From: Patescibacteria group bacterium
GTDB lineage: Bacteria > Patescibacteriota > Minisyncoccia > 2-02-FULL-40-12
Direction: 5' to 3'
Length of the DNA stretch: 63,041 bases
Assembly: GCA_038063995.1 (NCBI GenBank)
Contig: JBBTUA010000003.1
Location: 1-63,041 of the forward strand
The translations under genes were made by a program, and so were the position numbers. The notes beneath the pieces were generated by a model. The model was given only the letters and a program-made list of their open reading frames with translations, searched no databases and had not been told where the DNA came from. Below are positions 6,898 through 46,789 of this stretch, in pieces. Positions within the stretch are counted from its first letter, which is position 1, and every line of letters begins with the position of its first letter.

Positions 6898-7406
6898 CTC
6901 GGCATAATCAGAATCAGAGCTCTCGGCCTGCTCTTTAGAAAGCTTGCGCGAGCAATATAAATTTCTTCATAGGGGCGGCCCTTCTTGGAAATGGCACGCC
7001 ACTTTGCTCGAATTGCCGATAAATCAGGGTACCTCCGCCATAGATTTATATATTCGGCAATTCTTCGCAAAGATACCGGCCATTTCTCAATAAACTTCCC
7101 AATTCAGAAATTTATATTTCTCGCCGCTTTCTAATTTTTAAATTTTCCCAATGAAAAGAAAACCATTTCAGAATCAGAGCCGCAGGGTATGAATAATTTC
7201 TGAACTTCAAGAGAATAGAATACAAATAACTGAAAGATATGAAGAATTGACGGATAACATTAGTGTTATTCTGATAAACAATATAATGGGGTAGGGGTTC
7301 CCCATTATATTGTCGGCAATTCAATATATCTGAAGATTATTTGTTCTATGAGCTTGAGAGAAGAAATTATTCATACCCGAGAGGCTCTGATTATGATTAT
7401 GCCGAG
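6898..7406. repeat. 509 bp non-coding element bounded by ~29 bp imperfect terminal inverted repeats (IR block A)
   Basis: ctcggcataatcagaatcagagctctcgg (6898-6926) matches the reverse complement of 7377-7406 with 1 mismatch and 1 indel. The interior is homologous in inverted orientation to 15237-16065. Confidence 0.75.
7172..7392. repeat. ~220 nt nested imperfect palindrome (copy A)
   Basis: Arms 7172-7253 and 7313-7392 pair (for example gggtatgaataatttc 7185-7200 with gaaattattcataccc 7363-7378). The apex holds hairpins ataaca-ttag-tgttat and acaatataatgggg...ccccattatattgt. Confidence 0.8.
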
Positions 7407-14337: not shown

Positions 14338-15237
14338 GTGCCCGAACTTCCAGAAGTAGAAACAATCGCAAAATATTTGAGGCCAAAAATAGTTGGTTTA
14401 AAGATAACCGATGTTTGGGCTGACCGTGAAAAACCGTTAAGACAGGCCGGCGGGCTTAAAAAGTTTTTAAAAGAAGTTAAAAACAAAAAAATCAAAGAGG
14501 TAAGGAGAAGAGCCAAATTCATTATTATTGATCTTGAAGGGCCTAAATCAATTTTTATTCATCAAAAAATATCAGGGCATCTGCTTTACGGAAAATGGAA
14601 GAAAAACAGAAACACTTGGAATTCTTTATCAAAAGGGCCGCTTCGCGATGACCCGCAGAATAAATACTTGCGGATAATTTTTTCATTGAATAACGGGAAT
14701 CAGCTTGCCTTATCGGATTTGAGAAGATTCGGAAAAGTACTACTTGTGGGAAATAAAGAAATAGAAAATTTGAATGAAATCAAAAAACTCGGGCCAGAAC
14801 CATTTGAAATAAATTTTGAAGAATTTAAAAATTTATTCAACCCTTCGATAAAACTCAAGGTAAGGAAAAAGGGACGGCTAAAACCTGTTTTGATGGATCC
14901 TTATTTTATCGCCGGGATCGGCAATATTTATTCAGACGAAATTTTGTGGGACGCCGGCTATCATCCCCTTTCCAGAGTTGAGAAACTAAAAGAAAAAGAT
15001 TTAAAAAAGGTATTTGACTCGACTATTAAGATTCTTAAAAAGGCAATCGAAAGTCAGGGTTCAAGCATAGATGACTACCGACTCCCGTCCGGCGAAAAAG
15101 GACATTATCAGGAAATTCAAAATGCTTACCAGCAGACCGGGAAAAAGTGCAAAAAAAGTGACGGCGGAGTAATCCAGCGTCTTAAAATCACCGGCCGCTC
15201 CGCACATTTCTGCCCGGTGCATCAAAAGAGACTATAG
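14338..15237 (+). CDS. mutM: formamidopyrimidine-DNA glycosylase
   Basis: N-terminal (M)PELPEVE, H2TH region, C-terminal zinc finger C..x..C...C; GTG start. Confidence 0.9.
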   Translation: MPELPEVETIAKYLRPKIVGLKITDVWADREKPLRQAGGLKKFLKEVKNKKIKEVRRRAKFIIIDLEGPKSIFIHQKISGHLLYGKWKKNRNTWNSLSKGPLRDDPQNKYLRIIFSLNNGNQLALSDLRRFGKVLLVGNKEIENLNEIKKLGPEPFEINFEEFKNLFNPSIKLKVRKKGRLKPVLMDPYFIAGIGNIYSDEILWDAGYHPLSRVEKLKEKDLKKVFDSTIKILKKAIESQGSSIDDYRLPSGEKGHYQEIQNAYQQTGKKCKKSDGGVIQRLKITGRSAHFCPVHQKRL

Positions 15238-15444
15238 CAAAAGTATAACCAATTTCTTCTCTCAAGCTCATAGAACAAATAATCTTCAGATATATTGAAT
15301 TGCCGACAATATAATGGGGAACCCCTACCCCATTATATTGTTATTGAAGAAAAAGAAAGTAAGGTAGCAATCCGTCAATTCTTCATATCTTTCAGTTATT
15401 TGTATTCTATTCCCTTGTAGTTCAGAAATTGGTTATACTTTTGC
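15237..15444. repeat. ~208 nt nested imperfect palindrome (copy B)
   Basis: gcaaaagtataaccaatttc (15237-15256) is the perfect reverse complement of 15425-15444. The interior matches copy A except for the outer stem and one apical sub-hairpin. Confidence 0.8.
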
Positions 15445-16065
15445 CAGTCTTTTTTGAGATTCCGTCTCGGCAGACCTCACCGGCGAAGCCCAAAGAAAAA
15501 AGCGGTTTGATGTTATCGTACCGCTTTGGAAGCTACATAAAGACCTCTGGCCTCTTCGGATTTTAGAACTTCTTTTGCATAGAACTGCAAGATATAATCC
15601 TTAGCTCACCTCCATATTAAGAACTCAACAAAACCAATATTTAACTAAGTTTCTAAAAGGCCTGAAAAAATGGCTTGATGCGCCTGTGCCTGAAATATTA
15701 GTTAGAATCTACTAGAGATACAAAATACTGGCTTTATTGAGCCCTAAATGCCTCAAAGAGAGAAATTTAACTATACCTACATTATAGCACTAAGATATAT
15801 AATTTGTCAAATGCAAACTTTTGGTCTCTGTTTTAGTATAGAAAGCAGATTAAAAAAGAAAAATAGAAAGCGGCAAGGCGTATCAATTTCTGAGTCGGGT
15901 AGTCGTCTTAGAAAATGGCCGGTATCTTTGCGAAGAATTGCCGAGCTTTAATAAATCTATAGTGGAGGTATCCTGATTTATCGGCAATTCGAGCAAAGTG
16001 GTGAGCCATTTTCAAGAAGGGCTCCCAAACGAAGAAATTGATATGCCTTGCGCAAGCTTTCTAAA
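15237..16065. repeat. IR block B: inverted-orientation copy of 6934-7378, with a ~400 bp extra insert
   Basis: 15251-15342 is a 92 nt perfect reverse-complement match to 7277-7368. 15855-16065 matches the reverse complement of ~6934-7140 with scattered mismatches. It lacks the terminal inverted repeats of block A. Confidence 0.8.
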
Positions 16066-16071
16066 TTCCTA

Positions 16072-17013
16072 ATGATCATCTTTCTCCACGGCCAAGACTC
16101 ATACAGTTTAATTCAATACGTAAACAATCTTATCGCCAGATACGAAAAAAAATATCCGGGCAGTTTTAATTTCCATCGCTTCGACTTGGAAGAAGACGAT
16201 CCTGCCGAAATCAAAAATGTAATCAAGAGTACATCGTTTTTCAAACAGGTAAAATTCGCAGTCGTCAAAAATCCATTTGCCAAAAGTGAAGTTATGGAAA
16301 AATTGATAAAGGAAAATAGCCTGGAAAAAGACAAAGATTCGGTTTTGCTTCTTTATCAAACAGGCGAAGAAGAAAAGTTTAAAAATTTGAAGTTATTTGA
16401 TTTATTGAATAAAACGGCTCAAATAAAAGAATTCAAACCGCCGGAACGGCCAAAAGCCGCGAAATTCGCCTCTGATTATCTTTCAAAAAACCAGATATCA
16501 ATAGAAAGAACAGCCTTGAATAAGTTAGTCAAAGAAGGCGGCTCTGATTTTTGGAGGCTTAAAAATGAACTTGATAAACTTATTAATTTTTCAAAACAGA
16601 ACAAAGCCATAAATCTAAAAGAAGAAGATCTTTCAAAGTTAGTCAGTTTTAAACTTGACCAGAATATTTTTAACATCCTTGACTCTCTTTTTTCAAACCA
16701 AAGCAAAGCTTTGCTTCTTCTAGAGGATTATTTTTCTTCCGGCGGCGACCCTCTTTACCTTATTTCAATGATTGCTTTCCAGCTAAAAAATATGCTAATA
16801 GTTCGAGAGTTGATAGACAAAAAAATGCAGTACGCCCAAATCCTTAAAAAGACCGGCATGCATCCGTTTTTCTTCAAAAAAATTTACGAGGCATCTAAAA
16901 AATACAGCCTTAGCGACTTAAAAAATATTTTCCGAAAAGCAGTTGATTTTGAAATGGCTTTAAAAACAGGCCAGGCTGAAGCTGAAACCGCTTTTTTCAA
17001 AATTTTTCTTTAA
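16072..17013 (+). CDS. holA: DNA polymerase III delta subunit
   Basis: N-terminal IIFLHGQDSY start and overall delta-subunit layout. The ORF track starts at a TTG (16048) inside the repeat; the ATG at 16072 is more plausible. Confidence 0.7.
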   Translation: MIIFLHGQDSYSLIQYVNNLIARYEKKYPGSFNFHRFDLEEDDPAEIKNVIKSTSFFKQVKFAVVKNPFAKSEVMEKLIKENSLEKDKDSVLLLYQTGEEEKFKNLKLFDLLNKTAQIKEFKPPERPKAAKFASDYLSKNQISIERTALNKLVKEGGSDFWRLKNELDKLINFSKQNKAINLKEEDLSKLVSFKLDQNIFNILDSLFSNQSKALLLLEDYFSSGGDPLYLISMIAFQLKNMLIVRELIDKKMQYAQILKKTGMHPFFFKKIYEASKKYSLSDLKNIFRKAVDFEMALKTGQAEAETAFFKIFL

Positions 17014-21498: not shown

Positions 21499-23484
21499 GT
21501 GGAGGAGATTTTCAAAGAACTGAATCAAGGCCAGATTGAAGCGGTCCGGACCACAAAAGGGCCGGTTTTAATTATCGCCGGACCGGGCGCGGGAAAAACA
21601 AAAACCCTAACCCATAGAATCGCTTTTATGATTGGCTCGGGAATCAAACCGGAAAATATTCTAGCTGTTACCTTCACTAATAAAGCCAGCCAAGAAATGA
21701 AAGAACGAGTTAAAAAACTGCTGGGGACTCATCCTTCGACAAGCTCAGGCCGACTAACGGCGATGCCGTTAGTCGGCACATTCCATTCAATCTGCGCAAA
21801 GATCTTGCGAAAAGAAGCTAAAGCTTTGGGCTTTACTAAAAATTTCACTATTTACGACGAAGAAGATCAGTTGAATTTGATTAAAAAAGTTATAGAAGAA
21901 TTGGGGTTCGGGCAGAAAAATTTTAATCCCTACTCGATTCTAAACCGGATTTCAAAATTAAAATCTACTCTTATCGGCCCGGAAGAGTACGAAAAAGAGG
22001 CTGGAAATTATTACGAAAAAACAGTAAGCCAAATTTATTCTGCTTACAAAAAAGAACTTAAAAAAACCAATGCAATGGATTTTGACGATCTTATTTTAAT
22101 GACAGCCAATTTATTTCAAAACCATCCCCAAATTCTAGAAAAATACCAAGAACAATTTAAATATATTCTAGTTGATGAATATCAGGATACCAATGTAAGC
22201 CAGTATTTTTTGGTAAAGATGCTGGCTGGAAAATACGGGAATCTCTTTGCCATTGGAGACACTGACCAATCAATTTATACCTGGCGCTACGCCGACTTCC
22301 GCAATATGCTCAATTTTGAAAAAGATTTTCCGGAAGCCAAAATTATTAGGCTTGAGCAGAATTACCGCTCGACCAAAACAATCCTAGCCGCCGCCCAATC
22401 CCTGATTAAAAATAACAACTACCGCCACGAGAAAGAACTTTGGACTGAAAACGCTGATGGAGAAAAAATCCTGATCGCCAATCCTTACGATGAAAGAGAA
22501 GAAGCCAAATTCATCATTGAAGAAATGAAAGAACTGGTGAAAAAGGGCTATAAGCTCAAAGATTTTGTGATTCTTTACAGAACCCATGCCCAGTCGCGGC
22601 CGATCGAAGAAGAATTTTTAACCCAAGGATTTCCTTATAAAATTATCGGCGCCTTAAAATTCTACGAAAGAAAAGAAATAAAAGACATCTTGGCTTATTT
22701 GAGAATTTTGGCTAACCCAAATGACTTTGCCGCGATGCAAAGAATCTATAATGTCCCGGTCCGGGGAATCGGAAAAACGGCTTTTTTGCGGCTGACCGAA
22801 TTCAGCCGAAAAAATAACTTAGATTTTTTTGAATCCTTATTAAAATCAAAGGAAATCGAAAATCTGCCGCCGAAATCAAAATTCGCCTTATACTCTTTAG
22901 GCAAAACATCGGAAAAAATGGGTAAAAAAGCAAAAGAACTCCAGCTAACTAAACTAATAAAATTCATTACTGACGAAATTGGCTACAAAGAATACTTGGA
23001 CACTAAAACCGAAGAAGGGTATATGCGCTGGGAGAACGTAAAAGAGCTTTTAACCGTGGCTAAAAAATACGATTCTATTCCACCGGAAGAAGCGCTGGTT
23101 AAATTTCTTGAGGAAGTGGCTCTGGTCCAGGAAACCGAGAATATCGACGAAGACCAAAATGTGATCCATATGATGACTCTGCATTCAGCCAAAGGTCTGG
23201 AATTTCCGGTGGTTTTCTTGGTAGGGCTGGAAGAAGGCCTCCTGCCTCACTCGAGAAGTCTTGATAATCCGATTGAAATGGAAGAAGAAAGGCGGCTTTG
23301 CTATGTCGGGATAACCAGAGCCAAAAGAAGGTTATTTATCACTTTCGCCCGCTCAAGAAATATTTTCGGGACATCTTCCAAGGGCATCTCCTCAAGATTT
23401 TTAAACGAGATCCCTCACGAAACAATCGAAACCGCATCTAGCCTGGATCTTCCAAATGACGATGAAATCATTAATTACGCTTAA
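21499..23484 (+). CDS. pcrA: UvrD/PcrA-family ATP-dependent DNA helicase
   Basis: LNQGQIEAV, AGPGAGKT, VTFTNKAS.EM, VDEYQDTN, TLHSAKGLEF, YVGITRA motifs; GTG start. Confidence 0.93.
   Translation: MEEIFKELNQGQIEAVRTTKGPVLIIAGPGAGKTKTLTHRIAFMIGSGIKPENILAVTFTNKASQEMKERVKKLLGTHPSTSSGRLTAMPLVGTFHSICAKILRKEAKALGFTKNFTIYDEEDQLNLIKKVIEELGFGQKNFNPYSILNRISKLKSTLIGPEEYEKEAGNYYEKTVSQIYSAYKKELKKTNAMDFDDLILMTANLFQNHPQILEKYQEQFKYILVDEYQDTNVSQYFLVKMLAGKYGNLFAIGDTDQSIYTWRYADFRNMLNFEKDFPEAKIIRLEQNYRSTKTILAAAQSLIKNNNYRHEKELWTENADGEKILIANPYDEREEAKFIIEEMKELVKKGYKLKDFVILYRTHAQSRPIEEEFLTQGFPYKIIGALKFYERKEIKDILAYLRILANPNDFAAMQRIYNVPVRGIGKTAFLRLTEFSRKNNLDFFESLLKSKEIENLPPKSKFALYSLGKTSEKMGKKAKELQLTKLIKFITDEIGYKEYLDTKTEEGYMRWENVKELLTVAKKYDSIPPEEALVKFLEEVALVQETENIDEDQNVIHMMTLHSAKGLEFPVVFLVGLEEGLLPHSRSLDNPIEMEEERRLCYVGITRAKRRLFITFARSRNIFGTSSKGISSRFLNEIPHETIETASSLDLPNDDEIINYA
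21734..21776 (+). repeat. GC-rich hairpin segment in frame inside pcrA
   Basis: ccttcgacaagctcagg followed by a perfect 13 bp stem gccgactaacggc-gat-gccgttagtcggc. It shares a 15 nt string with 52723-52737. Confidence 0.6.
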
Positions 23485-39345: not shown

Positions 39346-41538
39346 TTATTCCGGTTCTTGTTGTTGAAACCCTGTTTTCTGAAATTCTGTTTGGAAATCA
39401 GTATCAATTATTTCGTTTCCACTTGAACCCCCTTGAATATAAGTTCTGGCTGACCATTCCCAGTTTCTGTATTGAGAGTCTTGCCCGGGATTAGATGGAA
39501 ACTGTTCCCTGGGGCCATTTTTATCCAAATAATGGAGGATTGAGTGAGCCTCTCCGTTCCCGTCCAAATATGTTCCGTTGAGCATAATTTTGTCGACAAA
39601 AAGAGGCGAGGGTTTTAAAAATTCTTCTACTGGTTCGTTTTTTAAGGCCTCAATTATAAATTCTCTCCAAATCGGTCCTCCGGCAGAGATTCCCCCTCCT
39701 TCCTGGGTCATTTCGGCATTATCGTTATTTCCCACCCAGACTCCGACAGCCAGGGAAGGTGTATAGCCAATGGTCCAGGCGTCGCGGAACTTTTGAGTTG
39801 TTCCGGTTTTTACGGCGACTTGCCGGTCAGAGATGTAAAGCGGGCTTGATAGACCAAAAAGAAGACCCCTCGCCGAATTATCCGATAATATATCATTAAT
39901 CATTCTGGCTGTTTCCGTCGAAATCCTTCGTTCCGGTTCTGTCCTGTTTTCCTCGATTATGTTTCCTTCCGAATCTTCAATTCTAAGGATCAAAGAAGGC
40001 GGATTATATATCCCGTCATTCGCGAATATTCCGTAGGCTGAAGCCAGATCAATTGGCCGGACGTCAGCTCCCCCCAATACCAAAGAAAGTCCGAAATCTT
40101 TTGTATTGCCTAAAAATTTTATTCCCATTTCTTTGGCTCTTTGGATCGCGTTTTCAATACCGGCGAGATAAAGAATCTTAACCGAAGGTATGTTCAAAGA
40201 ACTTCCAAGGGATTGCCTTAAGGTCACCGGACCCCTGAATTTTTCGTCAGAATTTTGGGGATGATAGCATTCAAGTCCGTACTGGTCTTTAATCTGACTG
40301 CCGTCGGGCGAACAATTCGGATTAAATTCTGTTTTTATGTCAAATAAAATTGTCTTGTCCGTCAGGCCCTTATCTAAAGCAGCTGAATAAACGAGAGGCT
40401 TAAAGGCTGAACCAGGCTGCCTGAAAGAAGTAATTACATTAAAGTTGCCGTCATTCTCTATGTCGAAATAATTTCTAGAACCGACCATCGCCAAAATTCC
40501 CCCGTTTTTAGGATTTAGAGCGACTAAGGCGGCATTGCCGGCTCTAAAAAGTTTTTCATTTCTGTCAGCGTATTTCTCTACTGTTTTTTCGGCTTGCTGC
40601 TGCAATTTCCAGTCCAAAGTCGTATAAACTTTAAGCCCGCCGTTTTGAACCAGATCTTCGCCGTATTTTTCAACCAGATACTCCCTGACCATCATCACAA
40701 AATGAGGAGCGCGAAGGCCGCCGTTTGAAGGAGAGGCAAGTTTTATTTCTTCATTTACGGCCGTATCAAATTCTTCTTTAGTTATTATTTTAGATTTCAG
40801 CATCTTTTCCAAAAGGGCATTTTTTCTGCTTAACAAAGCATCCTTATGGGATCCGTAGGGAGAATAATAGCTGGGAGCTTTAAGCATGCTGGCCAGAATA
40901 ACAGACTCATTCAAAGTAAGATTTTTTGCCGATTTTCCAAAATAACCTTGGCTGGCTTCTTCTATGCCGAAGATATTTGATCCGAACGGGACTTGATTCA
41001 GATACATCCAAAGAATAAGATCTTTCTCGAATTTCTGCTCAATCTGAAGAGAGATAATCAATTCTTTGAATTTTCTTGAAAAAGTTTTTTCATAAGTAAG
41101 CAGGGAGTTTTTAACCAGTTGCTGGGTTATTGTCGAGCCGCCTTGAGAAAAAGCCCTTTCTTTTATATTAATGAACACTGCTCTTAGCACTCCTCTTATA
41201 TCCAGCCCCTGATGATCATAAAAATTTTCATCTTCTGCGGCGACTACGGCATTTTTTGCATAGGAAGAAATTTCTTCAAGCGGGATGATTGTCCTTTTTT
41301 CTTCTCCATGAACGCTGAATAAAACGGTTTCTCCTTCCCGGTCAAAAATCTTCGTAGCCTCGTTGACCCGTCTTGTGATGATGCTTTGGGGATCCGGAAT
41401 CTGGGGCGAGAAGTACGCAAATGCAGCCAAAAATGCGGTTACGCCGATAATAAAAAGCCAAAGCAGGCCGATCAGAAGAAATCTTAATTTCAAACTGGAT
41501 GGATTTATTTTAGACAAAATCATCCTTTTCTTTTGCAT
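39346..41538 (-). CDS. class A penicillin-binding protein (transglycosylase/transpeptidase)
   Basis: GT51 motifs EDENFYDHQGLD and GGSTITQQL; transpeptidase SAFKP (SxxK) and KTGT. The ATG at 41538 is preferred over the upstream track start 41640. Confidence 0.9.
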   Translation of the reverse strand: MQKKRMILSKINPSSLKLRFLLIGLLWLFIIGVTAFLAAFAYFSPQIPDPQSIITRRVNEATKIFDREGETVLFSVHGEEKRTIIPLEEISSYAKNAVVAAEDENFYDHQGLDIRGVLRAVFINIKERAFSQGGSTITQQLVKNSLLTYEKTFSRKFKELIISLQIEQKFEKDLILWMYLNQVPFGSNIFGIEEASQGYFGKSAKNLTLNESVILASMLKAPSYYSPYGSHKDALLSRKNALLEKMLKSKIITKEEFDTAVNEEIKLASPSNGGLRAPHFVMMVREYLVEKYGEDLVQNGGLKVYTTLDWKLQQQAEKTVEKYADRNEKLFRAGNAALVALNPKNGGILAMVGSRNYFDIENDGNFNVITSFRQPGSAFKPLVYSAALDKGLTDKTILFDIKTEFNPNCSPDGSQIKDQYGLECYHPQNSDEKFRGPVTLRQSLGSSLNIPSVKILYLAGIENAIQRAKEMGIKFLGNTKDFGLSLVLGGADVRPIDLASAYGIFANDGIYNPPSLILRIEDSEGNIIEENRTEPERRISTETARMINDILSDNSARGLLFGLSSPLYISDRQVAVKTGTTQKFRDAWTIGYTPSLAVGVWVGNNDNAEMTQEGGGISAGGPIWREFIIEALKNEPVEEFLKPSPLFVDKIMLNGTYLDGNGEAHSILHYLDKNGPREQFPSNPGQDSQYRNWEWSARTYIQGGSSGNEIIDTDFQTEFQKTGFQQQEPE

Positions 41539-41562
41539 ATCGTTTATATTATTATACGGATA

Positions 41563-42741
41563 GTGAAGATTATAACAGATGAGAGCAAAATTCAAGAATT
41601 GCTTACAAGGGGCGTAGAAGAAGTTATCGAATTTGAGCATTTAAAAAAACGCCTCTTGGCCGGAGAACAGCTAAGAGTTAAACTCGGCATTGATCCGACA
41701 AGTCCTAATATTCACATAGGGCGCGCTGTTATTTTGTGGAAGTTGAGAGAATTTCAGGATTTAGGCCATAAAGCCGTTTTTATTGTTGGCGATTTTACGG
41801 GCCAGATCGGGGATACTTCGGATAAAGAGTCCGAGCGGTCAGGACTTTCTGAAGAAGAAGTTAAGCGAAATATGAAAACTTATTTCGATCAGGCATTTAA
41901 AATTCTTGATAAAAATCGAACAGAGGCACATTACAATTCAAAATGGTTATCCGCGATCGGCTACAGAGACATTGACGAAATGCTGGAATTATTTAGTTTG
42001 CACGAGTTTGAAGCTCGGGAAAATATTGCCAAAAGATTAACTGCCGGAAAGCGTGTTTCACTTCGGGAACTGTTATATCCATTAATGCAAGGGTATGATA
42101 GCGCGGCTATAAAAGCTGATGTGGAGTTGGGGGGCACTGATCAGAAATATAATTTGCTTGCCGGGCGCGTTATACAAAAACACTACGGTCAATCGCCGCA
42201 AGATATTATGACAATGAAGTTCCCGCTTTTAGGACCGGATGGCCGCAAAATGAGCTCTTCTTGGGGCAACGTCATAAATATTACCGATGAGCCGAATAAT
42301 ATGTTCGGTAAGGTTATGAGCATAGGCGACGATCTTATCGTTCACTACTTTGAAATGGCGACTCAAGTACCGGCTAATGAAATAAGGGAATTTGAACAGA
42401 GCATTAGAAGAGGAGATAATCCGAGGGATATTAAATTGCGCTTAGCTTGGGAAATTGTAAGGATGTATCACGGTGATAGGGAAGCAACTAAAGCCAGAGA
42501 CGAGTGGGAGAGGGTTTTTTCCAAAGGGGAATTGCCCAGCGAAATGGAAGAAGTTGAAGGCGGCAAGTTGGTTGATGTGGTTGGATTAGGCGCCGGGGTC
42601 AGTTTAACTCAAGCCAAGAGATTGATTGACGAAGGAGCGGTTAAAGTTAATGGAGAAGTTATCAAAGAATGGGAGAAGTTGGTTTCAAAGAGTGATGTGA
42701 TTCAGATCGGTCCTAAAAAGTTTGTTAAAATAAAGAATTAA
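41563..42741 (+). CDS. tyrS: tyrosine--tRNA ligase
   Basis: HIGH-type PNIHIGR, KMSSS (KMSKS) and a C-terminal S4 domain. The start is uncertain: GTG 41563, or ATG 41533 which would overlap the divergent PBP start. Confidence 0.88.
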   Translation: MKIITDESKIQELLTRGVEEVIEFEHLKKRLLAGEQLRVKLGIDPTSPNIHIGRAVILWKLREFQDLGHKAVFIVGDFTGQIGDTSDKESERSGLSEEEVKRNMKTYFDQAFKILDKNRTEAHYNSKWLSAIGYRDIDEMLELFSLHEFEARENIAKRLTAGKRVSLRELLYPLMQGYDSAAIKADVELGGTDQKYNLLAGRVIQKHYGQSPQDIMTMKFPLLGPDGRKMSSSWGNVINITDEPNNMFGKVMSIGDDLIVHYFEMATQVPANEIREFEQSIRRGDNPRDIKLRLAWEIVRMYHGDREATKARDEWERVFSKGELPSEMEEVEGGKLVDVVGLGAGVSLTQAKRLIDEGAVKVNGEVIKEWEKLVSKSDVIQIGPKKFVKIKN

Positions 42742-42744
42742 ACA

Positions 42745-42768
42745 AAATCCCGCGATTCGCGGGATTTT
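42745..42768. terminator. bidirectional rho-independent terminator
   Basis: aaaatcccgcg-attc-gcgggatttt, a perfect stem flanked by A-run and T-run. Confidence 0.8.
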
Positions 42769-42776
42769 GTTTAAAA

Positions 42777-42996: not shown

Positions 42997-43449
42997 TTAA
43001 CCTAAAATAGCTAAGGCCAGAGCATCGGCGGCATCGTCTGGTTTAGGCTCTTTTTCAAGGTTAAGCAGGAGCTTTACCATTTTTTGGACATTCCCTTTTG
43101 AGGCGCGGCCATAGCTGGTTATCGATTTTTTAAGTTCAAGAGGCGCCACTTCAAAATAAGGTATATTTCTTTGGCTTAGAGTAAGAATTATAACTCCCCT
43201 GGTTTCAGAAACCGCTAAGACTGTCTTTCTGTTTTTAAAGAAAAACAATCTTTCTAGAACAACCTGGTCCGGTTTTATTTTTTCAATAAGTTTGACCAGC
43301 GATTCCCGTACTTCCATTAACCTCAAGCCGGTTTCCTTGGCTTTTATTTTTATGGCCCCGTATTCTAAACAGGAAAATTTTCCGCGGTCTTTTCTTACCG
43401 CGCCATAACCGATCAAAGAAGAGCCGGGGTCGATTCCTAAAATAACCAC
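42997..43449 (-). CDS. ruvC: crossover junction endodeoxyribonuclease RuvC
   Basis: ILGIDPGS...GYG N-terminus and C-terminal DAADALA. Confidence 0.92.
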   Translation of the reverse strand: MVILGIDPGSSLIGYGAVRKDRGKFSCLEYGAIKIKAKETGLRLMEVRESLVKLIEKIKPDQVVLERLFFFKNRKTVLAVSETRGVIILTLSQRNIPYFEVAPLELKKSITSYGRASKGNVQKMVKLLLNLEKEPKPDDAADALALAILG

Positions 43450-43450
43450 C

Positions 43451-43966
43451 TTAAGCGATGTCTTCCTTTAGATTAGTGCTTACTTCTTCGACTTCTTCTT
43501 GGTCGTCCAGAGCTTCGATCAGCTTATCCAGTTTTTCTTGATTAGACGCGTCAATCGCGGCTGGCTGGCTGAACATCCATGAGAGGCTGTCGGGCTGGAC
43601 CATTTTAGAGCCGAAGTCATTAAGTATTTTTTTAACTTCGGAAATAGTCCGGTTTCGGCTATCTGTTATCGCTCTTATTCTCAAAGCCGTTCCGCCGGGC
43701 CCCAAGGCTTCAATCGTCAGCTCTTCTAACTGGGCTTGGTCTTTGTCTGAAATTTTTTTGATCGCCCTCTCGATATTTTCTCCCGGCATATTATTGGTTT
43801 TTGCTTGTTCTATTGCCTGGGCCAGCGCTTGATTTGTTTTGGGGTCAGCGCCCTTTTTGGCGGCCAAAGTTATTAATCTGGATAGTTTAGAAAAAATCTG
43901 ACCTTTCTTTTTGTCGGTTAGGGCTTTTTTATGACGAATTTGCTGCCAGCGATTATGTCCGCTCAT
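43451..43966 (-). CDS. YebC/PmpR-family protein (short, 171 aa)
   Basis: MSGHNRWQQIRHKKA..D.KKG..F.KL...I..AAK.G.DP..N..L motif. It is shorter than the usual ~240 aa. Confidence 0.8.
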   Translation of the reverse strand: MSGHNRWQQIRHKKALTDKKKGQIFSKLSRLITLAAKKGADPKTNQALAQAIEQAKTNNMPGENIERAIKKISDKDQAQLEELTIEALGPGGTALRIRAITDSRNRTISEVKKILNDFGSKMVQPDSLSWMFSQPAAIDASNQEKLDKLIEALDDQEEVEEVSTNLKEDIA

Positions 43967-44001: not shown

Positions 44002-45027
44002 TCAAACTTTTAAAGTTCTTTCGGCCCCGATTTTTAAATGTTCAAAGGCAAGTCTGGTAGCCATTCTGCCTTTGGGTGTTCTCGTTAAAAAGCCTATTTG
44101 CATAAGGTATGGTTCAAAAACTTCTTCAATTGTTTCTTCATCTTCGGCAATCATAGCGGCTATGGTTTTTATCCCGACGGGCCCGCCGCCGAAATTATTT
44201 ATGATTGCCTCGAGTATTTTTTTATCGGTGGCTTCCAGGCCAAGTTCATCAATTTCAAGCATTTTTAGAGTTTCTTTTACGGTAAGGGCGTCTATTTTTT
44301 TATTTCCTTGGACTTGAGCCAGATCGCGACTCCTTTTTAGAAGTTTATTGGCGATCCTTGGGGTATAGCGGCTTGCTTTGGCTAGCAGTTCTTTACCTTC
44401 TTTTTCTAAATCTATGCCTAATATTTTTGCCGATCTTTGAATTATCTCTTCGATATTTTTGTGGCTGTAAAAGTCGAGTCTGTAGTTAACGCCGAATCTA
44501 GACCTGAACGGGGAAGACAGAAGCGCGATCCTTGTCGTAGCGGCGATCAAGGTAAAGCGGGGGAGTCCTATTTGTATTGTTTTTGCGGAAGCGCCCTTGC
44601 CAATAATGATATCAAGATTAAAATTTTCCATAGCCGGGTATAGGACCTCTTCTATTAGTTTGTTGAGGCGATGAACCTCGTCGATAAATAGAGTGTCTCC
44701 TTCCTGAAGATTAGTGACGATTGCGGCTATGTCGCCGGCTTTTTCAAGCGCTGCTCCGGAGGTAATCTTTATGCCAGAGCCGCGCTCTTTGGCAATTATA
44801 TGAGCAAGAGTTGTTTTACCAAGGCCGCTCGGGCCGTAAATTAATATGTGCTCCAAAGGCTCCCGCCTTTCTTTGGATGCATCGATCATTACTTTTAAAT
44901 TGTTTTTTATTTTTTCCTGACCGACGAATTCTTTAAAATTTCCGGGTCTTAGGGTTTGATCAAACAACTGATCTTCCGGCTGGACCAGGGGAATATTCTT
45001 TTTCTCTATTTTTTGATTCTTATCCAT
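44002..45027 (-). CDS. ruvB: Holliday junction branch migration helicase RuvB
   Basis: LRP..F.EF.GQ, Walker A GPSGLGKTTLA, FIDEVHRL. The ATG at 45027 is preferred over the TTG at 45051. Confidence 0.93.
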   Translation of the reverse strand: MDKNQKIEKKNIPLVQPEDQLFDQTLRPGNFKEFVGQEKIKNNLKVMIDASKERREPLEHILIYGPSGLGKTTLAHIIAKERGSGIKITSGAALEKAGDIAAIVTNLQEGDTLFIDEVHRLNKLIEEVLYPAMENFNLDIIIGKGASAKTIQIGLPRFTLIAATTRIALLSSPFRSRFGVNYRLDFYSHKNIEEIIQRSAKILGIDLEKEGKELLAKASRYTPRIANKLLKRSRDLAQVQGNKKIDALTVKETLKMLEIDELGLEATDKKILEAIINNFGGGPVGIKTIAAMIAEDEETIEEVFEPYLMQIGFLTRTPKGRMATRLAFEHLKIGAERTLKV

Positions 45028-45082
45028 ATATTTTAAACAATTAATCCACAATTTGTGATCATTATATCCTTACTTTCCCTAC

Positions 45083-45111
45083 TTGACAATCTTAGGGGCT
45101 CGATATATAAT
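45083..45111 (+). promoter_or_regulatory. consensus sigma70-type promoter (TTGACA-17 nt-TATAAT)
   Basis: ttgaca 45083-45088, a 17 nt spacer, tataat 45106-45111; it points away from ruvB into non-coding DNA. Confidence 0.6.
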
Positions 45112-45117
45112 GTATCT

Positions 45118-45350
45118 ATACTTAATATATACCCAAATCGGGTTATTTTATTTCGTGTTTATTCGGCAAAACTCCTGACAGGACGCAGTCAATTGGTCTT
45201 TGATTAAACCCTTGGACTGATACCGGAATATTTTTTCTACGGGTAATTTGGAAGAGCTTGTCTCTTTCTAGATTATTCCTGGATAGTATTCTACCCCTCG
45301 CATTTCCCAAGATCGAGGATTTGACTGCGTCCTGTCAGGAGTTTTTTATT
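45118..45350 (+). ncRNA. candidate structured non-coding RNA of unknown class, or a MITE-like element
   Basis: Lies downstream of the consensus promoter. 45168-45192 and 45321-45345 form a perfect 25 bp stem enclosing 128 nt, followed by TTTTTTATT. No ORF is present. Confidence 0.4.
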
Positions 45351-45361
45351 CTCCATCCAGC

Positions 45362-46789
45362 TTAGCTGGATCCAAGAACCCTGTGAATCTCATCAAGATC
45401 GGTTATTCCTTCCAAAACTTTTAAATATCCGTCTTGAAGCATTGTTATCATTCCTTTTTTATCAAGCAGGCCTTTAAATTCAGTAATATTCGGGGTTTGG
45501 AGAATGAATTTCTCTATTTCCGGTTCCATTTCAAAGGCTTCAAAAATTCCTATCCTGCTTTTATAGCCTGTAAAATTGCATTTCTCGCAGCCAGCCGCTT
45601 TAAAAATCATAAATTTGTGTTTTTTAGGCACTGGATTTTTATCCAAATTTTTTAAAACAGAATTTATTTTTTCGATTTCGGCATCTTCGGCCGAAACTTC
45701 TTTTTTACAATCTTCGCATAATTTTCTGACCAGTCTCTGGGCCATGGCGATATTCATCGCTGGAGCAATTATTTGGGGTTTAACGCCCATATCAATCAAT
45801 CTTGGAATGGCTCCGGCCGCATCGTTGGTGTGCAGAGTCGAAAAAACTAAATGTCCGGTAAGGCCTGCGTGCAGCGCTGTTTCGGCGGTTTCAGCATCTC
45901 TTATTTCTCCAACCAGAATAACGTCAGGGTCCTGTCTTACTATGGATCTTAGCCCGTTTGAAAAATCATATCCCTTTTCCGGTTCAACTTGAGTTTGTGA
46001 TACTCCTTGAATTTTATATTCAATGGGGTCTTCGATGGTTATTATCTTCACTCCCGGTTCGTTCGCAAAATTAATAAAAGCATAAAGGGTCGTAGTTTTG
46101 CCTGATCCTGTCGGCCCGGTCGTTAAAATCAAACCAGTAGTTTTTTTCAGTCCTTTCTTAATTTTCTCAAGCAGGCCGCTCCTTATGCCTAATTCTTCCA
46201 AGCTTTTTTTGATAGTCTTGGGATCCAGGAGCCTCATTGCAATGCTTTCGCCGTAAGCTCCCGGAAGTGACGAGACCCTTACTTCAATATCGCCGCCGCT
46301 TCTTTTAACGGTGAATCTTCCGTCTTGGGGCGCCTCTCTTATGTTTATTTTCAGGCCGGCGATGAGTTTGATCCTATTTAAAAGAGCTGGATAGTCGTTT
46401 TTAGGAAAGTCCAGAATATCCTGCAGGACTCCGTCTATCCTGAATCTTAACCTAATACGTTTGTCTTCAGGTTCAAAGTGGATATCCGAAGCTTCAATCG
46501 AAATTGCTCCGCCAAGCAGGAATTCAAGGCTTTCCGTTGTCTGTGTCTGGGCTATTTTAGTCTTGAGATCCTGTATATTTTTTACTTCTTTTTCAAATTG
46601 ATTCAGCTTTTCCTGGCCAAGATTTAACTCACCAAGCCTGGTTTCTTTGAATTGAACTTTGGGAGGACTTGCCTTTTCGGTTAATTGGGTCGTTTCCCCG
46701 CTTTCCCGTCTTCTTATTTCCTGGAGCTTCAATTCTAATTTTCTTTCTTTTTTAGGATCCGGGAATTTCGGAGTTGGAGTGCTAGACAT
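45362..46789 (-). CDS. GspE/PilB-family type II/IV secretion (pilus assembly) ATPase
   Basis: Walker A TGPTGSGKTTTL, Asp box, Walker B ILVGEIRD, His box and a C-terminal tetracysteine C..C...C..C. Confidence 0.9.
   Translation of the reverse strand: MSSTPTPKFPDPKKERKLELKLQEIRRRESGETTQLTEKASPPKVQFKETRLGELNLGQEKLNQFEKEVKNIQDLKTKIAQTQTTESLEFLLGGAISIEASDIHFEPEDKRIRLRFRIDGVLQDILDFPKNDYPALLNRIKLIAGLKINIREAPQDGRFTVKRSGGDIEVRVSSLPGAYGESIAMRLLDPKTIKKSLEELGIRSGLLEKIKKGLKKTTGLILTTGPTGSGKTTTLYAFINFANEPGVKIITIEDPIEYKIQGVSQTQVEPEKGYDFSNGLRSIVRQDPDVILVGEIRDAETAETALHAGLTGHLVFSTLHTNDAAGAIPRLIDMGVKPQIIAPAMNIAMAQRLVRKLCEDCKKEVSAEDAEIEKINSVLKNLDKNPVPKKHKFMIFKAAGCEKCNFTGYKSRIGIFEAFEMEPEIEKFILQTPNITEFKGLLDKKGMITMLQDGYLKVLEGITDLDEIHRVLGSS

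Follow-up and report, generated by a model that had tools for sequence, protein, structure and literature searches.

The locus and its transcription signals

In the 63,041 nt stretch of DNA analysed here (the window), the gap between ruvB and the convergent gene of a T2SSE/PilB-like ATPase contains a 25 bp inverted repeat, the arms of which lie 128 nt apart (Table 1). A NusA gene lies beyond the ATPase gene, on the same side of the element. A preliminary description of this DNA had reported a perfect promoter pointing away from ruvB, a perfect 25 bp stem enclosing 128 nt, and a U-tract 12 nt before the PilB-like stop codon, and the sequence was found to be as described in each of these respects, with the promoter matching the sigma-70 consensus at 12/12 positions. 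Transcription is predicted to start near A45118. Folding predictions gave -89.8 kcal/mol (z = -9.6) for the plus-strand transcript and -70.1 kcal/mol (z = -5.6) for the minus strand, a difference of 20 kcal/mol that gave a first hint of G.U pairs favouring the plus strand. The 25-mer arm was unique in the window, even allowing 3 mismatches (0/100 shuffles). Just past the U-tract, a palindrome (CCAGCTTAGCTGG, 45357-45369) gives the T2SSE gene its stop codon; two related loci, L010 and L014, are without this insertion of ~15-19 nt, and T2SSE ends at TTATTCTCC or TCATTCGCC there.

Table 1. Positions of the element, its predicted helices and signals, and the adjacent genes, in window coordinates
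Feature	Position	Strand	Remarks
ruvC, downstream of ruvB	42997-43449	-	
yebC, downstream of ruvB	43451-43966	-	
ruvB, divergent neighbour	44002-45051	-	Present in every locus examined
Back-to-back promoter TTGTCA-17-TATAAT facing ruvB	45061-45089	-	11/12; consensus match only
Sigma-70 promoter	45083-45111	+	-35 TTGACA 45083-45088, 17-nt spacer, -10 TATAAT 45106-45111; 12/12 consensus
5' leader	45118-45167	+	Small hairpin ACCCAAAUCGGGU 45131-45143, then U-rich run 45144-45153
P1 5' arm	45168-45192	+	AAAACTCCTGACAGGACGCAGTCAA; 25 bp in the window, 23 bp in the family model
P2 hairpin, 5' side of the junction	45195-45218	+	Loop invariant among close relatives
P3, long irregular apical arm	45225-45292	+	Base GGAAUA/UAUUCU and wobble block UUGG/CUGG (near-)invariant; tip variable
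P4 hairpin, 3' side of the junction	45296-45318	+	CCUCG C AUUU CCCA AGAU CGAGG; invariant in close relatives
P1 3' arm	45321-45345	+	Perfect complement of 45168-45192
U-tract TTTTTTATT / UUUUUUAUU, directly after P1	45342-45350	+	Likely transcript 3' end in this genome
T2SSE/PilB-like ATPase gene, convergent neighbour	45362-46789	-	Stop codon 45362-45364

Perfect TTGACA-N16-18-TATAAT sites numbered only two in the 63 kb window, against a chance expectation of 0.04. The other of the two, a TTGACA-N18-TATAAT site running from 15810 to 15781 on the minus strand, points into ~540 nt without a convincing ORF (15445-15810 region, minus strand), a gap bounded by ORFs that by eye are Fpg/MutM-like (14338-15237) and HolA-like (16048-17013). 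The block 15451-15504 is common to other metagenome organisms at 4-13 times baseline depth, and the 15445-15810 region had no Rfam match. This region may represent a second unannotated RNA, the 3' part of which is the repeat element at 15237-15444 described below.

Homologues, fold and covariation

A contig of a groundwater MAG (GCA_964361065.1) and Logan contigs from groundwater metagenomes also encode the T2SSE protein, and contigs of those metagenome runs were mapped onto the region. Exact contigs crossed the element at flank depth (e.g. 8.85 in X1), that is at 1x, which indicates that it is single-copy in this genome. Diverged contigs kept the inner blocks 45191-45217 and 45287-45322, and their flanking arms differed yet complemented each other, suggesting that the core is conserved and its closing helix covaries. 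With an exact 21-mer taken from the P4 block, matches were obtained in three GTDB genomes, all CPR MAGs, once per locus fetched, and a gapped two-block pattern returned seven true homologues together with 12 chance matches (JGI/ENA metagenome contigs). The homologues found by motif were laid out alike, with ruvB divergent, followed by TTGACA-17-TATAAT, the leader hairpin and U-rich run, a variable insert, the helices P1-P2-P3-P4-P1' and the T2SSE 3' end.

As these first matches had been ascertained on P2/P4 sequence, and were biased accordingly, a second set of loci was fetched independently of the motif through T2SSE protein homologues (43-73 % identity) and searched with the covariance models R1 and R2. 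Every T2SSE-fetched locus gave exactly one strong match, in the ruvB-side gap and on the strand reading away from ruvB. The covariance scores ranged from 206 bits at the top to 35 bits at the bottom; L029 (T2SSE labelled Yanofskybacteria) and L030 scored 68-70 bits, L034 (protein labelled Moranbacteria) 44 bits (E 2e-12) and L035 35 bits (E 9e-10). The reverse-strand model scored 4-5 times below the forward-strand model.

Our family sample comprised 16 sequences, all from Parcubacteria and hence from one superphylum (CPR), and in 16/16 loci the element was single-copy, in the same orientation and next to ruvB. The gene downstream of the RNA was the convergent T2SSE 3' end, the place of which is taken in L034 by a Gmad2/Germane-domain gene. 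A TTGACA-17-TAnnAT promoter lies upstream in 15/16 of the Parcubacteria loci and its stricter form, TTGACA-17-TAnAAT, in 14/14 homologous loci checked; the L034 promoter is a 10/12 site with an extended -10. The leader hairpin and U-run were found again in most homologues, the distant L029 and L035 included. From the leader hairpin to P1 the distance ranges from 0 to ~190 nt among homologues, and from the -10 box to P1 from ~19 to 214 nt, and so variable a leader can probably be dispensed with or is cut back to the P1 clamp.

The part of the leader that lies between its 5' hairpin and P1 was also seen to be a hotspot of lineage-specific insertions. L004 carries an insert of ~170 nt closed by its own 18 bp stem (GUCUGGUUGUCCACAGGA / UCCUGUGGGCGACCAGAC), and L010 one of ~100 nt with three hairpins. 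A 3' extension in L015 (AGTCCGGTCGCTCACAGGAGCAAATC) is similar to the L004 insert arm in reverse complement.

The predicted RNA, ~180 nt in length, is a four-way junction in which an end clamp, P1, encloses the hairpins P2, P3 and P4, with a P1-to-P1 span of 175-204 nt among the 15 aligned members. In the window, P1 consists of 25/25 Watson-Crick pairs, and across the family its cells comprise 316 Watson-Crick pairs, 19 G.U pairs and 9 others, with no conserved bulge. Its length is kept while its sequence drifts, although the inner half (GCRGGNAA / UUNCCYGC) is conserved in sequence. P2 is flanked by linkers of just 2 and 5-9 nt. The tip of P3 is cut down to a short tetraloop-capped stem in L029-L031 and L034, and from this comparison we take the tip to be dispensable, whilst P4 is compensated in L029, L030 and L034 (e.g. 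CUCGG/CCGAG). Little or no variation is seen in the junction linkers AAUUG and UUUG. These linkers, the base of P3, its UUGG/CUGG block and, among close relatives, the loops of P2 and P4 are the likely recognition surfaces of the RNA.

Two tertiary contacts, a kissing interaction between the P2 and P4 loops and a CUUGG/CCAAG pseudoknot, were considered and rejected, neither being conserved in L029, L030 or L034 (alignment by eye). In L026 the P2 loop carries a 36-nt insertion, 21 nt of which (GATATATTGATATTTCGATAT, RNA-orientation 2806-2826) pairs perfectly with 2971-2991, a stretch that starts 2 nt after the 3' end of the model, which suggests a possible long-range pairing with the 3' trailer. 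A related motif (ATATCGAAATAT) flanks the L027 copy as well.

Covariation in homologues, a test that the preliminary description had proposed, revealed compensatory changes in all four helices. A plain MAFFT alignment of nine sequences (A1), analysed with RNAalifold, gave 64 pairs in four helices, 22 of which had changes on both sides. A second alignment of 14 sequences (A2) was made with the covariance model, and here 97.5 % of cells were standard pairs, compared with 85.2 % in shuffles and 36-52 % when the partners were slid. Changes on both sides were seen in 39/64 pairs of A2, which 0/500 shuffles reached, with 19/23 in P1, 3/5 in P2, 13/25 in P3 (helices 4 and 5) and 3/9 in P4. The A2 counts lean towards structure, since that alignment was fitted to the model, but the independent A1 alignment and the slid controls argue that the covariation signal is real. 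Across 15 sequences, G.U cells outnumbered A.C cells by 132 to 7 on the plus strand, and by 19 to 4 in P1 alone, and selection therefore acts on the plus-strand RNA. Such a G.U/A.C asymmetry would not arise from symmetry at the DNA level, as when a single protein binds both terminal inverted repeats. An internal palindrome in each arm (CCTGACAGG) was examined as a DNA operator and discarded, as three homologues (L011, L027 and L031) lack it and yet retain the pairing.

Proposed function and competing explanations

Taken together, we consider it very likely that the element is a real structured ncRNA gene that acts as RNA, single-copy, stand-alone and conserved in Parcubacteria (CPR/Patescibacteria). 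The preliminary description had proposed an independently transcribed structured RNA of ~230 nt, and this proposal is supported by synteny, the promoter, covariation and the G.U excess; from these sequence features we infer that the gene is transcribed, where its transcript ends and how abundant it is, and the RNA is probably abundant. RNA polymerase would start near 45118, transcribe a dispensable leader and stop at the U-tract that follows P1, so that the primary transcript would measure ~230 nt. Trimming of the 5' leader to the P1 clamp would leave a nuclease-protected RNA of ~180 nt, in which P1 would shield both ends and set the junction geometry. A conserved partner in the cell, most probably a protein, would then bind the invariant surfaces in trans, namely the linkers AAUUG/UUUG, the P2 and P4 loops, the GGAAUA/UAUUCU base of P3 and the UUGG/CUGG wobble block. 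No gene for such a partner was found linked to the RNA gene in the loci examined.

As to what this RNA does, we tentatively favour a subunit or regulator of a Parcubacteria-specific RNP, which would make it neither a diverged 6S RNA nor any other known RNA type but a new class of CPR housekeeping RNA. Beyond the 6S and RNase III readings considered next, it is with such a Parcubacteria-specific RNP or regulator that the remaining probability mostly lies. Structure, promoter and position are kept out to the loci with Yanofskybacteria- and Moranbacteria-labelled T2SSE, which suggests that the role of the RNA is likely to be a basic one. In a more speculative variant of the RNP reading, and a very improbable one, the four-way junction would imitate a Holliday junction and so titrate what the neighbouring ruvB-yebC-ruvC operon encodes.

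The likeliest specific function, to which we nevertheless give somewhat less credence, is that of a 6S-type RNA, which would mimic an open promoter, sequester the sigma-A/sigma-70 holoenzyme and be released by pRNA synthesis. P1 would then represent the downstream duplex and P3 the irregular upstream duplex, with P2 and P4 filling the bubble. Canonical 6S RNA comprises a closing stem, an internally looped apical stem and, 3' in its central region, a hairpin (PMC8414754). The element resembles it in its length of ~180 nt, its 5'/3' closing helix, its irregular apical stem (P3) and its 3'-side hairpin (P4), and it is single-copy, conserved like a housekeeping gene and provided with a consensus promoter, as would be expected of a very abundant RNA. 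6S RNA, alone among widespread bacterial RNAs, is commonly missed by homology searches, and none was reported for CPR in the literature searched or detected in the window, although the window covers 63 kb of the genome and a canonical 6S RNA may exist elsewhere. However, the 5' central region of the element is not open, being occupied by the covarying hairpin P2 between its short linkers; P1 is uninterrupted, without the usual bulges; and no Rfam 6S match was obtained at E<=10. With a covarying hairpin in place of the open bulge and no bulges in the closing stem, the RNA is not classed here as a 6S member, and 6S membership is not supported. Its architecture is nevertheless nearest to that of 6S RNA among known mechanisms. 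Should it be the CPR equivalent of 6S RNA, then RNA-polymerase decoys would extend to CPR in a new structural form; should it not, it would represent a new class of large structured RNA, and such classes are rare.

Uninterrupted helices such as this one, of 23-25 bp, are typical targets of RNase III, and the mature form of the RNA may for that reason differ from the one proposed here. It is rather unlikely, if only slightly more so than a 6S function, that the transcript is primarily a precursor processed by RNase III, with P1 as the processing stem and a functional core of ~130-150 nt (P2-P4) freed by cleavage. The drifting sequence and conserved length of P1, nearly all of it Watson-Crick paired, would fit such a stem, as would the freely varying lengths of the leader and trailer, which look as if the ends were set by processing. 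The inner sequence of P1 is conserved, however, which would be needless for a pure processing stem. A form processed by RNase III is compatible with the structured ncRNA gene proposed above rather than opposed to it.

We regard as improbable that the element acts in cis only, either as a bidirectional terminator or insulator or through a promoter that occludes that of ruvB, with an RNA that has no function of its own. In the window, P1 is indeed followed by U6 on the plus strand and UUUU on the minus strand, and two promoters overlap back-to-back, with the -35 palindrome TTGACAA/TTGTCAA common to the RNA promoter and the ruvB-facing promoter. However, this back-to-back geometry is not kept in L006, and not obviously in homologues generally, and a U-tract directly follows P1 in only ~6/15 members (the window, L010, L014, L030, L031 and, weakly, L029, being absent in the others), whereas no conservation is seen for the minus-strand U-run. 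In L034 a separate hairpin of terminator type lies just downstream. A terminator can explain P1 but not P2-P4, which are conserved and covary and would be needless for termination, and the long bidirectional terminator offered as an alternative in the preliminary description is disfavoured on the same grounds. A probable bidirectional terminator elsewhere in the window is a perfect 18 bp hairpin with a 1-nt loop (TTAAACAAAATCCCGCGA / TCGCGGGATTTTGTTTAA, 42738-42774), just past a tyrosyl-tRNA-synthetase-type ORF (41533-42741, plus strand) and ~220 nt from the end of ruvC.

There is very little to commend the other alternative of the preliminary description, a MITE with 25 bp terminal inverted repeats. 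Long perfect inverted repeats do surround a short non-coding core, and a real multi-copy hairpin element of this style is present in the same window. A search for further copies of the 25-mer, which would have pointed to a MITE, found none in the window; the element was present once in each relative locus, including the loci from the three GTDB genomes in which the core motif occurs, and exact contigs were at 1x depth. Position and orientation are fixed in the 16 loci, arm sequences diverge between species and compensate with a G.U bias, and no match of the element was found in phage records or viral contigs that would suggest a mobile or phage origin. There is no target-site duplication either: the TTATTC near both flanks, which had been taken as a sign of a MITE, is not one, since the right-hand copy corresponds in L010 and L014 to the T2SSE stop and last codons, and their left flanks are without the motif.

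The multi-copy hairpin element of this window lies at 15237-15444 and has 21 bp perfect arms (15237-15257 / 15424-15444) set 166 nt apart, as well as nested imperfect repeats and an apical hairpin of 14 bp, and both strands fold at ~-83 kcal/mol (z ~ -11). A second copy, 89 % identical and with outer arms that differ with compensation, is found on the opposite strand at 7187-7376. In the source metagenomes its exact unitig reached 1.5-4 times the flank depth, and related contigs brought the total to 7-30 times; no Rfam or viral-contig match was found. This element is probably a multi-copy MITE-like or repeat-RNA family. It served as a positive control for multi-copy behaviour, of which the ruvB-side element shows none.

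We judge the remaining two explanations to be negligible. An invertible DNA switch (inverton) that recombines at the inverted repeats would be in keeping with a ~130 bp segment between such repeats next to a promoter, but the core has the same orientation in 16/16 loci, the arms covary as RNA, the neighbours (RuvB, YebC, RuvC, T2SSE and NusA) include no recombinase gene, and no strand-changing joints were seen in metagenome contigs, a weak argument as contigs drop rare variants. A small protein gene, such as a 55-aa ORF at 45143-45310 on the minus strand, was the other; the preliminary description had found no ORF here, and whilst mechanical ORFs of 31-55 aa do occur in the gap, no frame or strand is conserved, as the open stretches switch strand and frame between homologues, 1-2 nt indels are common and substitutions track base pairing rather than codons.

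Comparison with known RNAs and elements

Scans with Infernal/Rfam, as the preliminary description had recommended, at the gathering threshold and at E<=10, found no family of Rfam 15 in the surrounding region, on the element alone or on its L034 version, and ARAGORN found no tmRNA, in agreement with the earlier remark that no diagnostic motifs of SRP RNA, RNase P RNA or tmRNA could be found. Over the whole window at E<=1, Rfam returned tRNAs only and otherwise noise. This included a match at 23257-23360 to RF03531, an sRNA lying within a Clostridioides difficile helicase gene, with a score of 38.7 bits (E 0.01) that falls short of the gathering score of 65; the match probably reflects conserved coding sequence and not RNA.

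Several further candidates were tried and rejected. The flanks of L015 and L004 looked like CR-I/CR-II of RNase P RNA, and the P1 5' arm like CR-III, but this lead was dropped because there was no RNase P match, and the CR-I-like string of L004 is one arm of the separate 18 bp hairpin in its lineage-specific leader insert. Diverged RNase P RNAs of CPR are reported to be still detectable with RF00010 at low thresholds (PMC8172020). A CsrA-type sponge was rejected as the 7 GGA motifs sit in stems, not loops (alignment by eye), and strings resembling hammerhead (CUGAUGA-like) or hairpin (UGACAG) ribozymes occur in only some members, where they are paired.

CPR bacteria have tiny genomes and, to our knowledge, almost no described regulatory RNAs, and our search for literature on 6S or other structured sRNAs in CPR, Patescibacteria or Saccharibacteria found no paper. 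The covariance model generated during this study gives a handle for the annotation of MAGs, for metatranscriptome searches and for synthesis of the RNA for binding and probing.

Among known elements, Correia/ERIC-type hairpin MITEs are likewise ~130 bp of non-coding DNA with long inverted repeats at gene ends, but the ruvB-side element is single-copy, syntenic in distant relatives, has its own promoter and covaries at the RNA level. The RNase III stems of rRNA precursors are near-perfect helices of >20 bp that flank a conserved core and drift by compensation in their outer part, as P1 does; here the enclosed RNA is ~130 nt, the inner P1 sequence is conserved and any processing is putative. Retron msr-msd ncRNAs are similar in having their own promoter and terminal inverted repeats (a1/a2) that close a multi-hairpin RNA. 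In a retron, however, a reverse transcriptase gene follows, whereas none was present in any locus and the downstream gene is convergent. Y RNA and YrlA share with our RNA the long helix of the RNA ends around a multi-hairpin, cloverleaf-like module that presumably binds protein, but have a bulged Ro-binding helix, a tRNA-like T-arm and linkage to rsr, whereas P1 is without a bulge, no T-loop-like sequence is present, no Rfam match was obtained and the flanks contain no rsr-like gene. Closest is 6S RNA (ssrS; RF00013 and related), another stand-alone gene with a strong promoter and an RNA of ~180 nt with paired ends, an apical stem with a dispensable tip and a 3'-side hairpin. It differs in its large open 5' bulge, the pRNA template, and its bulged closing stem, in place of which the Parcubacteria RNA has a compact junction, a covarying 5' hairpin and an unbroken P1, and the two have no sequence or profile similarity. 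Because there is no match in Rfam 15 even at E<=10 and no paper was found, the family appears to be undescribed: an end-clamped, stand-alone sRNA like the 6S and Y RNAs, but one built on a four-way junction and an unbroken clamp.
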